DNA of 64,000 bases from an uncultured Verrucomicrobiae bacterium (GCA_963735805.1 CAVTMK010000002.1:256001-320000); one strand, 5' to 3'; counted from the stretch's first letter, positions 21,001 to 45,000 are shown. Numbers are program-made.

Positions 21001-24000
21001 CAGGAAACTGCGTGGTTGAGTACGTATCCATGTCGGCCGCGCCGTTTAGAATCTTGGTATTCACGTCCGAGGAATCGAACTCCGTCCAGTCGCGGCAATT
21101 GGCCAGCCGTTTATCCAGATGCCGGTTGTGCATTTTCCATTTCCCGACTAGAAAATCGAAGTCTTTAGGCGAGGAATTGGGCGAAGCAGTTATCTTGAGC
21201 TCGCCCTGAGCGTCCAATTCCACTTTGGGAATCGAGATACTTTTGTCCGCCGTCAGCTCTTTGTTTTCCGCCGGAGCAAAATGCGAAAGTGCTAAGACCA
21301 AACTGATAATCAGGCAATTTCTAGGAACGAAACTGTGTCCCATCGCTCAATCTAAAGGTAAAAACTGGGCATTAGCAAATCGCCTTCTCCAGCGAAGCGC
21401 GCCTATTTGCAGCCTTCGCCGAGTCGCTGCGTTTCCATCGTAATGCGCACTCTAGCGCACATTTATGTCGGAATTGCGCAACTTCAAGAGACCTTGAAAG
21501 AGGTTTCGAATCCCGTTAGGGTCCGAGCCGGCTCGGATCCGAATTGAAAAAGCGCGATTGAGAACGCGGCTGCTATGCAATAATTTAAAGGAGATGGAGA
21601 CGGCCTTTTACCAGTCGGAATCTGAGCAGCCGCATCCAGGGCGTGCCCGCGCGATTATTAAAGCGCATCCGGAAGTCCGGCAATTGATGGTGCGCAATCC
21701 ATGGACGGCTGTCATTGCCGTCTCAATCGTGCTCATGCAAACGGGCATCGCTTTCGAAATGGGAAGACTGGGGTTCGGTTACTGGTGGCTCAGTTTGCTC
21801 ATTGCCTATTGCGTAGGTGCGTTCGCGAATCATGCCAATTACGTCATTATTCACGATGCCACTCACAATCTGATTTTCCGGAATAAAAGCTGGAACAAAA
21901 TGGTGGCCGTCGTCGCCGACCTTCCCAATCTCGCGCCCGGTGCTATGGGTTTCCGTGTTTATCATTTGAAGCATCATTCGCATCAGGGGGATTACGAATA
22001 CGACGCGGACCTGGCGAACCATTGGGAGGCACGACTCGTGGGCAACAAATGGCATCGAAAGGCGGTCTGGCTAATGCTCTTTCCATTTTTTCAGCTGACT
22101 CGGCCGCCACGACTGAAAGCGATTAAGATGTGGGACCGGTGGTTCTTCGTTAATTTTGCATGCGCTGTGGTTTACGATCTGGGGGTCGTTTATTTTTGCG
22201 GTTGGCCGGGATTTCTTTATCTCGTATTCGCATTTTTCTTTTCGATCGGGCTGCATCCGGTGGGGGCCCGCTGGATCCAGGAGCACTACACTTACGATTT
22301 CGACCAGGAAACGTTCAGTTACTACGGGCCGATCAATCGCGTTGCGCTAAACATGGGTTATCACAACGAGCACCACGATCTGCCCTCAATTCCGTGGAAT
22401 AATCTGCCGAAACTGCGCGCCATGGCTCCGGAATTTTACAATAACCTGAAATATCATTCGTCGTGGAGCCGATTGCTTTTCCAGTTCGTCTTTGACAAGC
22501 GATACAGCCTTTATTCGCGGGTTGAACGGATGAAAGAGAGGACGGACTTCCAACGAATCCCCAACATGACAGCCAATCAGGTCGGCGGTCTTGATCTGAG
22601 TGCGAGGACCATTAGTTTTTAGTAATGGCAGAGCGATTGTACGTCTCGAACAAAAACGAGACAGTCCGGATGTTCGATAGCGATTTCATAGAGTTTTTTT
22701 CGCGGGTGCATCCGGTGACTCCATTGGTGTTGTATGTACCGGTGATTGGCTACATGCTTTATGTGTCTCTCTGGCAACACCAGTTGTCAGTCGTGCCGGT
22801 CACGGCGCTGTTTTTGTTCGGCGTTTTGCTGTGGACACTGACTGAGTACCTCATCCACCGGTACATATTCCATTACCAACCCAGGACTCGTTGGGGAAAA
22901 CGGTTGCACTATGTGATTCACGGCGTGCATCATGACTATCCCAACGACGCGCGACGGCTCGTTATGCCGCCAGTCATCAGCATCCCCCTTGCGTTTCTTT
23001 TCTATGGTCTGTTCCTTCTAATTTTTGGGAGCCTGGCGCCGCCGGTGTTTGCCGGACTGGTCTTCGGTTACGTTTGTTACGACATGCTTCATTACGCAAC
23101 GCACCATCTGATAATGAAGCGCGGCGCGTGGCTTTGGCTGAAGCAATATCACCTCCGCCATCATTTTAAGGACGATCACGTTGGATACGGCATCAGCTCG
23201 CCGCTTTGGGACTATGTTTTTCGGACCACGCGAAAATGACGCGCTGGGAATATTCCACGGCCAGATAATCAGTTGACGCCGCAAAGGGTGGGGGTTCCGC
23301 CATCTCACCAAAAATCTTGTCCTGAAATCCGAAACCCGCTAGATTGGCTGCCCCGAGACGGAACTCGGCTGCATACGGATGCAGCGGACAACTTCGTAAG
23401 GAATCTGTGAAACACGAAAGCTTTCAACTTTGCCGGGACGCGCCGTCCGTTCGGACGGGAGCGAGCGAAAGGCAGTGTACCATTTGATGAATCACGACCC
23501 GGCAAAACTCAGTCTGAGTAATTTTCTGGCACATGAAACGAGTGATCCGCTGGAGCCGCCGCCCGGATTCACGCATTGGATGCGACAGGCCACGTTCGCA
23601 GTGGAACTTTACGAACCGGAGCTGCTCGCCAGTGCGGACGCGCGCACGACTATCGATTACAACGGCCGGCCGCGCTCGGTAATCAACCTTTGTTCCTACA
23701 ATTATCTCGGGCTGGCAAATCACCCCGAAGTCATCGCCGCAGCGCAGGAAGCATTAAAGACGCACGGTCTCGGCGCATGCGGTTCGCCGATGCTGTCCGG
23801 CATGACGGACCTTCACCGCGAGCTTGAGCGGCAGGTGGCAAAATTCCTCGGACGCGAAGACGCCATGCTTTTTAACAGCGGATTTGGCGGCGCGCTTGGA
23901 ACTATCTCCGGTTTGCTGCGCAAAAACGACGTAGCGATCCTGGATAATCGCTCGCATTTGAGTTTGCGCGACGGTGCGGCGCTTTCGCGATGTCGGGCGG

Positions 24001-42000: not shown

Positions 42001-45000
42001 CGGTGATCGCCGGGACCCGTGAAAATTTGTGCAAAGTGTTTTGGTCGCGCATAGGCACTCGAGCAAGGTGCGTCTGGCCTGATAAAACTGATGGAAGACA
42101 CCTGCAACACCTGATATGACGGAACCTTTGCGCCCGCCATTATTGATCGTCGCAGATTCGCCGGAGGCGCTGACGGACCTGTGCGGCATCTCGTTGCTGG
42201 AACGAATGCGTCGCATCGCACTGAACCTCGGTTTTCGCGAAGCGATGATTTTGTCCAACTCCGTGAAGGCGGTGGCGGCGCATGTCGCCAATGAGTCGTG
42301 GCGTCGTGCAGATGTGTCGCTCACGTTCCGGGAGCGCAACGGTGCGAAGGTCACGGTTGGCGATATTCTAGATTGCCTCGCTGCCCTGAAGGTCGCCGCC
42401 GACGGGCGGATCCTCATCGTATTCGCGGGTTTTTATTGCGATGAACGCCTGCTGCGCTCGCTCGCCGACGCACAGACCAACTCCGCTCTCATCGATTCGG
42501 ATCCCCCATCGATTATTGCGCCGCTTTTGGAAAATGCAGATCCCCATTCTTCCAGCCGGCTTTTGTGTGCAGCTCTGCTCTCCAGCGAATGGCTTTCGCA
42601 AAAAAATTGCGCTGACACACTAGTGGAAGAGATTACTTCGGATACGATGGCGGGTCGCATAGCGCGCGTCGACGCTGCCCGACAGCAAGCATACGTTGGA
42701 AGTATGCGCAGGAGTGTGCGGCCGGTCTTCTTTCCAGCTCCTTCGCTCGAGCGCCGTTCGCTGGCTGAAGGTTTGCTCCGTGACACGACACAAAAAGGTG
42801 TCCTTGATTTTCCGGCGCTTGTGCACGCACCGATTGAGAAGTGGCTGGTCTCGCATCTCTGCCGAACGACGATCACTCCGAATCAGATCACGTTTGGAAC
42901 CGGAGTTCTCGGTCTGGGCGTGACGCTGCTTTATGCCTGCGGCTATCTTTGGGCTGGAGTGTTGCTGGCCCTGGTTATTGGAGTTCTCGATGGCGTTGAT
43001 GGCAAGCTCGCACGATTGAAAGCGCAAACGACCAAGCTTGGAAAGAAGGAGCACGACGTCGATTATGTTGTTGAAACGTCGTGGTGGATGGCGCTGGCGT
43101 ATCATTTCCACGCCACCGGTCAAATTCGTTACGCTTACGTAATTTTCGTCGCTTTCTTTGCTTTCCATAGGCTGGAACGCGTGGCCAAAAAAGCCGTTCA
43201 ACGACGAATTGGTCGAAACCTGGATGATTTCGCTCCATTTGATCGCCTCGTGCGTATCGTTGCTGGCCGCCGGAACATTTATACCTGGCTGTTCGCCTTT
43301 TTTCTTGTCATTGGCGCCCCGGCGACTGGCTTCATATGGCTCTGCTTCTGGGGGGTGGCGAGCGCGGTCATCTACATCTTTCGTGCGTTGCAAATTTGCT
43401 TCACCGGCCAGGATAAACTGGCGGCAACGTCAACTCCATCGTGAAAGAGGCTTGGCCTGCGGCTGTCGATCTGACGGTACTTAAGAAATCGAACTTCGCG
43501 CGCCGCCCGGGTTGCTGGCGATAATGCGGCCGTCTTTCATCTCGTGGATCCAATCACAGGCTTCGGCGATAACCGGGTTGTGAGTGGCCAACAACAGGGC
43601 TTTCTCACCTTGTTGCACAATATTCTGAAGCAACTCAAAGGCGCGCTCCGAGTTGGCAGTGTCGAGATTGCCTGTGGGCTCATCCGCCAGAATGACTCGC
43701 GGATCATTGGCGAGAGAGCGTGCGATTGCCACACGTTGTTGTTCGCCTCCAGAAAGATGACGGCTGGGCCTCCGCAATTTGTCGCCCAAGCCAACCGCTT
43801 CCAGCAGGCCGGCAGCACGTTCTCGCATCTCACTATCGGAAAGTTTCCCGAGCTTGCGCATCGGAATCATCACGTTCTCCTGTGCGGTGAAATCCTCCAT
43901 CAAAAAATGGAATTGAAAAATGAAACCGATGAATTTGCTCCGTCTTCGCGCGAGCTCATCGTCGCTCAGCTGCGAAACCGGCTCCGATTCGATTGAAACG
44001 CGGCCAGCATCAGGCAGATCGAGCAGGCCAAGAATGTAGAGCAACGAACTTTTGCCGCATCCGGACGGGCCGACAACCGCATGGACACTGCCAGGGTCGA
44101 TATCCAGCGAGACACCCCGGAGAGCGTGCACACGCTCTTCCTCTTCGCCCAAATAGCGTTCGATTCCTTCGCAGCTGAGACAGGTGCCTGCGTTCATCTG
44201 GAACCTCGAATCGTGACTACAGGTGGCAATTCAGCAGCGCGACGCGCGGGGACGTAACTTGCGATGAACACCGCCACGATCGCCAACAAGGTCGCAAACA
44301 CGTAGTGTCTCCAGTCCCATGTCACTAAAAAGTAGTTCGTGTACAGCAAACCGCGGAGATGAATAGGAATGTGCGATACGCCCCAGGTCATTAACGCACC
44401 GAGCAGGCAACCGAGCAGCGAGCCCGCCACCGCGATCAGCGCGCCTTGCCACAAAAAAATGGATGAAATGTCGATGCGCCGGTAGCCCATCGAACGCAGA
44501 ATCGCGATCTCCTTTATTTTCGCGAGCACCGACATGGTCAGAACATTAAAAATTCCAAAGCCGGCTAACAGGATGATCAGGGAGACAGTGATGGCGACAG
44601 ACATTCTGAGAGTGAGAAAAAGCTGTAGCGTGCTTTCTTCGCGTTCCTGCCAGCTCGAGGCGTTATGTTGAAAGAGTGTTTCAAAACGGCTGGCCAACGC
44701 CGGTGCACGGTTCGGATTTCGCAGTTTGTATATGATCATCGACGCGCCGGAGGGCTGTTGCAGCAGGGCTTGCGCGACCCTGGCGTGCGAATAAACCCGT
44801 GTTGAATCGATCGAGCCGATTCCTGCGCGAGCGATCGCAGCAACCGTGAATCGCCAGTACTCGCCGTTGGGCGCGAGCAATTGCACAGTGTCGCCTACTC
44901 CAGCTTGAAGTAACTCAGCCAGACGCGAGCCGATGATGATCGAGCTGGTGTTATTTCGAAAGTCATCAAAGTTCCCGTCAATTAACTGATGGAGAATATC

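Follow-up and report, generated by a model that had tools for sequence, protein, structure and literature searches.

Bacterial inositol phosphoceramides have been reported in print, and FA2H-like enzymes of myxobacteria have been characterised according to a review. For the putative "alternative" inositol-lipid cluster of Bacteroides vulgatus and Prevotella, the route is described as predicted only (Heaver 2022, PMC9246714). For Rhodothermus, lipid synthesis by way of CDP-inositol has been described; the published accounts of the Rhodothermus IPCT/BEPIPS and archaeal IPCT/DIPPS systems give dialkylglycerol or inositol phosphate as acceptors, not ceramide, and no link to SPT or bCerS. Plants and fungi form their (G)IPCs with a phosphatidylinositol-using AUR1/IPCS-type synthase.

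The window, a stretch of 64,000 nucleotides from an uncultured Verrucomicrobiae bacterium, holds a probable sphingolipid cluster at 21594-43444 (Table 1). A preliminary description, whose positions were already those of the window, had named its genes, and all of them are real, intact ORFs, including four CDP-alcohol phosphotransferases (PF01066; CAPT1-4); Ino1, placed about 6 kb beyond the cluster, begins 6.4 kb past its end. The locus shares the set of Ino1, IPCT and a DIPPS-like transferase with the Rhodothermus and archaeal systems. With the Caulobacter Spt-bCerS-CerR (ceramide phosphoglycerate) locus it shares SPT, bCerS, an acyl hydroxylase, a nucleotidyltransferase and a CDP-alcohol transferase, as judged by gene content, whereas the SDR, Ino1/IPCT, DES and a Scs7-type hydroxylase take the place of CerR, ACP and acyl-ACP synthetase. 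The best match to a Caulobacter-type CerR was unconvincing (E 7e-7), and no ACP or acyl-ACP synthetase was found among the cluster ORFs scanned. The proposed product class, phosphoinositol dihydroceramide, is the same as that of Bacteroides thetaiotaomicron BT_1522-1526, but the PIP synthase, phosphatase and AUR1-like transferase used there are all missing from the cluster, in which a domain scan detected no AUR1/IPCS-type synthase of the plant and fungal kind and no PAP2_3 or HAD gene. Like the alternative Bacteroidetes cluster, the locus has an NTP transferase and a CDP-alcohol phosphotransferase near an inositol synthase; it differs in having a transferase inside the SPT-bCerS operon, an IPCT-type rather than gut-type cytidylyltransferase, four transferases and no HAD gene.

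Table 1. Features of the locus, in window coordinates; functions are predicted.
Feature	Position	Strand	Basis
DES, DEGS-family sphingolipid delta-4 desaturase / C4-hydroxylase (accessory)	21594..22622	+	PF08557 (Lipid_DES) and PF00487 (FA_desaturase), both over cut-off; three His boxes
FAH, Scs7/FA2H-type fatty-acyl 2-hydroxylase without cytochrome b5 domain (accessory)	22625..23239	+	PF04116, PDB
Divergent alpha-oxoamine synthase, SPT by context (core)	23487..24791	+	PDB match, tree, neighbourhood
CAPT1, candidate ceramide phosphoinositol transferase	24791..25729	+	Motif, homology, TAATG overlap
bCerS-like double-GNAT ceramide synthase (core)	25741..26874	+	GNAT domains, homology
Repeat protein with Peptidase_S74 tail	27101..28285	+	Insertion, outside pathway
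CAPT2, DIPPS/AF2299-like, CAPT3 paralogue	28550..29257	+	45% to CAPT3
IPCT-type cytidylyltransferase (core)	29296..30054	-	PDB matches
Short-chain reductase (SDR), candidate 3-keto-sphingoid reductase (core)	30106..30909	-	NF049977 match
GT2-like glycosyltransferase, N-terminal membrane anchor (variable)	31074..31958	+	5/20 family loci
Wzx/MurJ-type flippase	31961..33547	-	PF01943; 13/20 family loci
GT9 + GT-C (PMT_2) module (swappable)	33754..36530	+	Domains
Epimerase, GT-C, GT2, YdjC deacetylase module (swappable)	36620..40722	+	In 4/8 genus relatives
CAPT3, AF2299/DIPPS-like, N-terminal soluble domain	40795..41994	+	PDB match, motif
CAPT4, variant second motif half	42116..43444	+	Alignment
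LolD/LolCE-like ABC transporter, adaptor, two TolC-like proteins; candidate exporter	43481..49633	-	Domains, loci
Inositol-3-phosphate synthase (Ino1)	49857..50960	+	PF01658, TIGR03450

The SPT-like protein has an SPT entry, 3a2b, as its best PDB match (270 bits, versus 248 for Kbl), and the PLP lysine, the stacking His and the Asp/His PLP ligands can be recognised in the PDB alignment as well as in relatives. It lies below every NCBIfam cut-off (323/640, 316/500 and 268/670 for the SPT models), and its BioF score of 349 exceeds its two best SPT-model scores. Several bCerS-adjacent genes in other phyla also fall below the SPT cut-off, yet SPT ranks first for them, which is not so for the window's protein. 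In the tree, it is placed outside the Kbl (support 100) and BioF (support 99) clades, and its tie to the SPT side has a support of only 46. The protein reads His-Leu-Ser, the family norm being His-Ala-Ser. The SPT label of the preliminary description is not borne out by the curated cut-offs, and the assignment is made from context. The bCerS-like protein is of the double-GNAT form of approximately 380 aa and is homologous to the gene adjoining SPT, in a comparison with SPT-adjacent genes; it is 36-48% identical to neighbours of SPT-clade genes in named bacteria, and two of those SPT-clade genes pass the CFB SPT cut-off. Against NF049977 (KdsR, BT_0972 type), the SDR gives the genome's top score and its sole full-length alignment, at 162 bits and below the cut-off of 400. 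Housekeeping counterparts located elsewhere in the genome comprise a tdh-kbl pair, a truncated BioF-clade-like piece, two pgsA-like genes and pssA-psd. It is very likely that the SPT-like enzyme, bCerS and the SDR make dihydroceramide: the SPT-like enzyme would join an acyl thioester to an amino acid that is probably serine, and bCerS would N-acylate the product and the SDR reduce its 3-keto group, in either order.

The SPT-like gene is present in 73 of the 81 family genomes and IPCT and Ino1 in 76 each, and 72 hold all three. Four genomes lack these three genes, and the same four also lack DES and FAH; this joint absence may reflect assembly gaps at one locus. In 20 family loci, IPCT is accompanied by SDR (19/20), bCerS (19/20), SPT (17/20) and at least two CDP-alcohol transferases (18/20), no single one of which is universal. 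Because the linkage of SPT, bCerS, SDR, IPCT and Ino1 is kept across 28 genera, sphingolipid synthesis with an inositol-phosphate head group is supported. This part of the previously suggested inositol-phosphoceramide pathway is supported, and its delta-4, plant-like and eukaryote-like wording is not (discussed below). In 8/8 genus relatives, picked for long contigs, DES, FAH, SPT, CAPT1 and bCerS run contiguously and are followed by CAPT2, IPCT and SDR, an order that places the arrangement beyond chance. DES occurs in 38 and FAH in 45 of the 81 family genomes, and only 31 hold both together with the full core; the cluster is a family-wide trait, and DES and FAH are accessory. Homologues are labelled Spartobacteria or Chthoniobacterales. 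The repeat protein has 34 tblastn matches in the genome and no match of at least 40% at the same position in any of the eight genus relatives. The preliminary description did not mention this insertion or the swappable glycosyltransferase modules.

The top three PDB matches of IPCT are 4mnd (IPCT/DIPPS), 4jd0 (titled nucleotidyl transferase) and 2xme (IPCT), with modest E values of approximately 1e-15 versus 1e-6 for phosphocholine cytidylyltransferase. Its closest solved relatives are thus IPCT-type enzymes, with the motifs aligned and a small margin over glucose-1-phosphate thymidylyltransferase (2e-15 versus 8e-14), and specificity for inositol-1-phosphate is predicted. The catalytic motif of CDP-alcohol phosphotransferases, DX2DGX2AR...GX3DX3D as quoted in PMC9246714, is intact in CAPT1-3. 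In CAPT4, the second half reads Gly-x-x-Glu-His-x-x-Asp, which is kept in 13/13 aligned homologues. CAPT3 matches AF2299 best in the PDB (E 2e-17), followed by IPCT/DIPPS. The longest ORF of CAPT2 begins at 28430, but 28550 is the likelier start.

CAPT1 aligns over almost its whole length, at 31-38% identity, with fusion proteins that carry NTP-transferase, HAD or PAP2_3 domains. Its relatives in 62 gut loci occur with NTP-transferase (38/62), HAD (37/62), PAP2_3 (20/62) and inositol synthase (8/62), the other 54 loci, many on short contigs, showing no inositol synthase; they often adjoin a canonical PIPS/AUR1-like cluster. The gene content of these loci matches that reported for the alternative Bacteroidetes cluster (PMC9246714), and gut proteins from loci of this composition share 28-45% identity with CAPT1. 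In full-domain alignments, IPCT is only 23-26% identical to the NTP domains that are fused to relatives of CAPT1, and therefore the usual donor of CAPT1 may not be CDP-inositol. Five family loci have a divergent CAPT1; in the only one of them that was mapped completely, it is accompanied by a second NTP transferase, of gut type. The window's genome was found to have no close gut-type NTP transferase.

It is reasonably probable that the head group is attached by direct transfer. Ino1 would supply inositol phosphate, IPCT would form CDP-inositol, and one CDP-alcohol phosphotransferase would place phosphoinositol from CDP-inositol straight onto the C1 hydroxyl of dihydroceramide, giving phosphoinositol-dihydroceramide. 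For this role, CAPT1, whose gene is coupled to that of SPT, is a slightly better candidate than the DIPPS-like CAPT2 and CAPT3; a second transferase would probably add a further phosphodiester unit. We found no description of a direct CDP-inositol:ceramide phosphotransferase in the literature searched.

The predicted DES model (pLDDT 90) resembles membrane diiron desaturase and AlkB folds. DES and FAH share the Lipid_DES domain, His boxes, fold class and Scs7 homology with eukaryotic DEGS1/DEGS2 and FA2H/Scs7. However, homologues with 43-55% identity to DES are found in named Bacteroidota, Acidobacteriota, Myxococcota, Bdellovibrionota, Ignavibacteriota and Planctomycetota, and the window's DES nests among them; by its sequence relationships it is part of a broad bacterial radiation and not a eukaryotic import, so that "eukaryote-like" was an overstatement. 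In unrelated named bacteria, DES occurs with SPT and bCerS in 4/80 loci, one of which also has FAH. The DEGS family is reported to include bifunctional C4-hydroxylases (PMC10140171), so delta-4 desaturation, as read in the preliminary description, is not fixed. In the one paper searched, no sequence determinant for delta-4 desaturation versus C4-hydroxylation was found. Oxidation of C4 of the base by DES would, with a chance just above even, give a delta-4 double bond; a 4-hydroxyl is a less probable outcome. A lipid both delta-4 and plant-like is also inconsistent, because the inositol sphingolipids of plants are for the most part trihydroxy: for plants as for fungi, delta-4 bases are reported to be channelled to glucosylceramide and GIPCs to be trihydroxy (PMC8318264).

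FAH has an FA_hydroxylase domain with four His boxes, and its only PDB matches are yeast Scs7 (E 2e-29). Cytochrome b5 was searched for and not found. In the roughly half of the family that has it, FAH probably adds a 2-hydroxyl to the amide-linked acyl chain. In two genomes without FAH, an OlsC/LpxO-type 2-hydroxylase adjoins SPT.

The reading that we favour, at somewhat better than even confidence, is that the locus directs the synthesis of an inositol-phosphate sphingolipid destined for the cell envelope, each catalytic step being predicted from gene content, motifs and conservation. Alternatively, ceramide may be made while CDP-inositol passes to diacylglycerol, an ether lipid or inositol phosphate (phosphatidylinositol or a di-inositol-phosphate-type solute), inositol ceramide then being absent or formed indirectly by a PAP2_3 or HAD enzyme. 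The AF2299 and IPCT/DIPPS likeness of CAPT2 and CAPT3 and the glycerolipid or inositol acceptors of the CDP-inositol routes described in print agree with this, and three PAP2_3 genes located elsewhere in the genome make an indirect route possible. It is nevertheless improbable, given that the start of CAPT1 overlaps the SPT stop codon, with bCerS next in line, that IPCT adjoins the candidate keto-sphingoid reductase in most of the 19/20 family loci holding both, and that the cluster has no PAP2_3 or HAD gene. Somewhat less probable still is a ceramide that receives its cap from another CDP-alcohol (phosphoglycerate, as it does in Caulobacter, or else glycerol phosphate or an amino-polyol), Ino1 being a mere neighbour. 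The Caulobacter ceramide phosphoglycerates do depend on a nucleotidyltransferase together with a CDP-alcohol transferase, there is a lipid kinase gene 5 kb upstream, and in some family loci a second NTP transferase, an aminotransferase and a dehydrogenase are found in addition, but the top relatives of IPCT among solved structures are IPCT-type enzymes and Ino1 lies within 25 kb of IPCT in 39/42 same-contig pairs. The least probable of these cases is that the alpha-oxoamine synthase takes another amino acid or acyl donor and yields a 1-deoxy or other non-standard amino-lipid without the usual C1 head group. Its long branch (1.33 changes per column), weak placement, and altered triad and substrate loop, both kept in relatives, point in that direction; against it stand the SPT entry as best PDB match, the constant presence of bCerS and the reductase candidate, and the phosphotransferases, which require a hydroxyl acceptor.

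Downstream of the core, the swappable glycosyltransferases, the flippase and the ABC/TolC proteins may, as we tentatively propose at rather less than even confidence, add sugars and carry the lipid outward. Among the genus relatives, GT9 occurs in 3/8 and PMT1 in 4/8, and candidate exporter parts are frequent in the 20 family loci (LolD 17/20, LolCE 14/20, adaptor 14/20). The epimerase, GT-C, GT2 and YdjC module is inferred to transfer an amino sugar from a lipid carrier. A further possibility, which is compatible with the core pathway and would remove only decoration and export, is that these genes serve lipopolysaccharide or another glycan and are merely interleaved with a smaller sphingolipid operon. 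lpxC is present in the genome, a Kdo transferase lies just upstream, GT9 is heptosyltransferase-like, and the GT2, YdjC and GT-C set presumably resembles lipid A amino-sugar modification systems. The flippase and exporter, however, are retained in the locus from genus to genus, while one and the same slot holds differing types of glycosyltransferase, and we consider this explanation a substantial possibility that falls well short of even.

Inositol phosphoceramides and FA2H-type hydroxylases are, by the reports cited above, not new to bacteria; what is new is the lineage and the proposed direct CDP-inositol-to-ceramide route. In its fullest and rather unlikely form, the proposal would be an outer-membrane sphingolipid of a widespread soil family, with sugars and more than one phosphoinositol unit attached to a true sphingosine or phytosphingosine backbone, made via a direct CDP-inositol:ceramide phosphotransferase and a bacterial DEGS enzyme and exported by a dedicated flippase and ABC/TolC system, as a convergent counterpart of plant GIPC. 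The cluster offers purifiable candidates for the question of which enzyme puts phosphoinositol on ceramide from CDP-inositol, the alternative route being described as only predicted (PMC9246714). Its DES is likewise a purifiable candidate for what bacterial DEGS-family enzymes do, given the statement in a review that bacteria make dihydroceramide rather than ceramide (PMC10191378). The abundance claimed for this soil bacterium depends on an assignment made to family level. Should inositol ceramides be products of a common soil family, some of the sphingolipid in soil that is now attributed to plants and fungi could come from bacteria, and the lipid could mark a largely uncultured group.

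Judged from its sequence, the sphingolipid locus in the window (G000:C2:256001–320000) is real and family-wide. The host genome is 3.52 Mb and 94% complete, its homologues carry Spartobacteria and Chthoniobacterales labels, and each gene named in the preliminary description is an intact ORF at the window coordinates assigned to it. GC content is flat over the cluster region. Because kbl (beside tdh), a truncated BioF-like piece, two pgsA-like genes and pssA-psd exist separately in the same genome, as does lpxC, the cluster genes are additions to the housekeeping set. The pgsA-like and pssA genes found elsewhere also rule out the four CDP-alcohol phosphotransferases (CAPT1–4) as housekeeping PgsA/PssA. 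The BioF-like gene survives only as a C-terminal piece, which may reflect broken biotin synthesis or an assembly error. The repeat protein inserted between bCerS and CAPT2 has 34 tblastn matches genome-wide. The upstream genes recur in several relatives. The 216-residue ORF before DES, which has a signal-like N-terminus and diverges from DES, lacks a Pfam or NCBIfam match and was not detected at the same site in the eight genus relatives.

Positions of the features discussed (in the window unless a contig or locus handle is given; L, loci fetched from other genomes)
Feature	Position	Description
Upstream genes	15924–16793, 16855–20377	lipid kinase, AsmA-like protein, RsmD, Kdo transferase
ORF	20693–21343
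DES	21594–22622	DEGS-family desaturase/C4-hydroxylase
FAH	22625–23239	Scs7/FA2H-type 2-hydroxylase
SPT-like	23487–24791
CAPT1	24791–25729	PF01066
bCerS	25741–26874
Repeat protein	27101–28285	Peptidase_S74 tail
CAPT2	28550–29257	PF01066
IPCT	29296–30054	inositol-phosphate cytidylyltransferase
SDR	30106–30909	candidate 3-keto-sphingoid reductase
CAPT3	40795–41994	PF01066
CAPT4	42116–43444	PF01066
Exporter	43481–49633	candidate exporter: LolD/LolCE-like ABC, adaptor, two TolC-like proteins
Ino1	49857–50960	inositol-3-phosphate synthase
BioF-like piece	G000:C2:469352–469915
Bacteriovorax locus	L097:9995–20317	DES, SPT, bCerS, CerR-like reductase, PAP2 gene and FAH, clustered
Acidobacterial locus	L085:1744–13178	DES, SPT, bCerS, PEP mutase fused to NTP transferase
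Tandem DES paralogues	L059:8842–10987; L066	beside CDP-alcohol transferase; two Acidobacteriota genomes
Accessory module	L243:12971–18524	divergent CAPT1, HAD, gut-type NTP transferase, class III aminotransferase, Gfo/Idh dehydrogenase
Radical SAM protein	L258:8689–9657; L243:3889–4962	examples
OlsC/LpxO-type 2-hydroxylase	L252:14432–15169; L253:2507–3400	adjoins SPT

Among genus relatives chosen for long contigs (matches of at least 40% identity), DES-FAH-SPT-CAPT1-bCerS is contiguous in all eight. CAPT2, IPCT and SDR come next, interrupted by insertions in two relatives; CAPT3-CAPT4 was detected in six, and Ino1 lies past the exporter in four of the five whose DNA extends that far. DES occurs in 28 of the 36 other genomes of the genus, and other families of the order gave weak partial DES matches alone (5 of 24 genomes). 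We surveyed 81 genomes from 28 genera of the family, including the window's own, and found the SPT-like gene in 73, IPCT in 76, Ino1 in 76, FAH in 45 and DES in 38. The first three occur together in 72 genomes, 31 genomes hold them with both DES and FAH, and four lack all five, counts that do not amount to a statistical test because the genomes are kin and linked genes vanish jointly in assembly gaps. Ino1 and IPCT share a contig as 42 pairs (40 plus two distant ones added from separate gene surveys), 39 of which span less than 25 kb; in about 30 further genomes they are on separate contigs. The family holds two Ino1 types, 78–97% and 54–57% identical to the window protein, the second mostly unlinked to the cluster. 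In 20 kb windows around IPCT in 20 family genomes, we found SDR (19), bCerS (19), SPT (17), LolD (17), CAPT1-like genes (15, five divergent), flippase (13), CAPT4 (12), CAPT3 (11), FAH (7) and DES (5); 18 of the 20 loci have at least two CDP-alcohol transferases. Beyond the family, CAPT1 gave a single weak match among 249 phylum genomes. bCerS was found in 13 of 251, two of the 13 being family members, and an SPT-like gene adjoins it in 6 of 10 loci inspected.

The top PDB match of the serine palmitoyltransferase-like protein g00706 is an SPT and the protein is SPT-like by genomic context, yet it lies outside the curated SPT families, scoring below every curated NCBIfam cut-off. In a quick tree of 33 rows it sits on a long branch that belongs to neither the Kbl nor the BioF clade, and its tie to the SPT side has a support of 46. 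It has a conserved His-Leu-Ser where the triad described in PMC6148460 is His-Ala-Ser. This placement and the separate kbl and BioF-like piece rule out a housekeeping Kbl or BioF. bCerS is 36–48% identical to neighbours of SPT-clade genes in named bacteria. At 162/400 bits, below the cut-off, SDR is the genome's strongest match to the KdsR model and the only one over the full length. One query found no good CerR homologue in the genome, and the cluster epimerase was rejected for this role, as its match is weak (E 7e-7) and it moves with the GT-C/YdjC module. For FAH, yeast Scs7 is the sole PDB match; functional FA2H-like enzymes are known from myxobacteria, according to part of a review. The OlsC/LpxO-type hydroxylase of two family genomes lacking FAH is an apparent non-orthologous replacement.

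DES has a Lipid_DES domain, three His boxes and a modelled membrane diiron fold; the single-sequence prediction was uninformative (pLDDT 40), and the alignment-based model resolved the fold class only. The sequence gave zero PDB matches, and a search for cytochrome b5 found none. A scan seeded on non-family homologues returned at least 599 stretches, at least 582 of them relatives. The 80 retained, 43–55% identical to the window DES, are spread over Bacteroidota, Acidobacteriota, Myxococcota, Bdellovibrionota and further groups; SPT and bCerS flank DES in four of these loci, most lack them, and many flanks are short. DES had been described as eukaryote-type, but in a quick tree it falls within a 23-row clade holding named bacteria (SH-aLRT 96), apart from a 16-row clade of unnamed rows that we take, by a sequence motif, to be eukaryotic. 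With the eukaryotic rows so assigned, its nesting among bacterial homologues in quick trees rules out a recent eukaryote-to-bacterium transfer. Sorangium has sphingosine-type bases, and Bacteriovorax stolpii has phytosphingosine-type bases. The literature gives the B. stolpii sphingolipid a phosphonate head group. The clustered Bacteriovorax locus L097 would be a useful point of comparison for DES chemistry. The acidobacterial locus L085 suggests a phosphonate sphingolipid. Given that DEGS2 is bifunctional (PMC10140171, in part) and that plant GIPCs are trihydroxy, delta-4 bases being sent to glucosylceramide (PMC8318264, in part), the DES product could be of the sphingosine or phytosphingosine type.

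The top PDB matches of IPCT are IPCT-type enzymes, by a small margin. The catalytic motif is intact in CAPT1–3 and a conserved variant in CAPT4; CAPT2 and CAPT3 resemble AF2299 and DIPPS, and CAPT4 matched PF01066 clusters only in the ESM Atlas. Nearly all of the 27 longer CAPT1 homologues are fused to NTP-transferase, HAD or PAP2_3 domains, and two are labelled Muribaculaceae or Duncaniella. CAPT1 relatives occur in 62 of 75 gut loci, together with NTP transferase (38), HAD (37), PAP2_3 (20) or inositol synthase (8). These loci fit the alternative cluster of PMC9246714 (in its available part), itself unconfirmed, with the named B. vulgatus genes matched by the paper's description only; Caulobacter head-group proteins were compared through paper descriptions, not sequences. 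A simple CDP-inositol reading of CAPT1 is weakened by the identity of only about 24% between the fused NTP domains and the window IPCT, by canonical PIPS/PgpA/AUR1-like genes also present in several gut loci with CAPT1 relatives, and by a second, gut-type NTP transferase in some family loci, which the window genome lacks. The accessory module of other genera, with similar genes in L246, L247, L250, L256 and L262, was not found in the window genome and possibly makes an amino-cyclitol or amino-polyol head group. In 10 of 20 family loci the cluster includes an unassigned radical SAM protein adjacent to CDP-alcohol transferases; the window genome has no close homologue of it. For the putative sugar decoration, GT9-PMT1 and epimerase-PMT2-GT2-YdjC (PMT1 and PMT2, GT-C glycosyltransferases) are alternative modules among genus relatives, whereas the window genome carries both. 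The same slot in other genera is filled by GT4, GT28 or different GT-C genes, and the flippase and the ABC/adaptor/TolC set are kept. Since LPS genes are present in the genome, the glycosyltransferases, flippase and exporter may serve LPS instead.

Inositol sphingolipids are on record for Bacteroides, Tannerella, Myxococcus and Sphingobacterium, in the last with 2-hydroxy acyl chains, and 22 Black Sea genomes of Verrucomicrobiota are recorded as encoding Spt-like proteins. Further background came from parts of PMC11324152, PMC10002949, PMC11334938, PMC9393093, PMC11765627, PMC2444003, PMC4587543 and PMC10191378, and second-hand from Jorge 2015 and Ring 2009. A literature search, with most subscription papers outside its coverage, found no report of the cluster or of ceramides in the family. 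The taxon tables of Stankeviciute 2022 might already include Verrucomicrobiota.

The delta-4-unsaturated, 2-hydroxylated inositol-phosphoceramide of the preliminary description is less likely than not as the exact product in the window genome. The family-wide locus most likely encodes an inositol-phosphate ceramide made via CDP-inositol, with 2-hydroxylation by FAH and C4 oxidation by DES as predicted optional steps.
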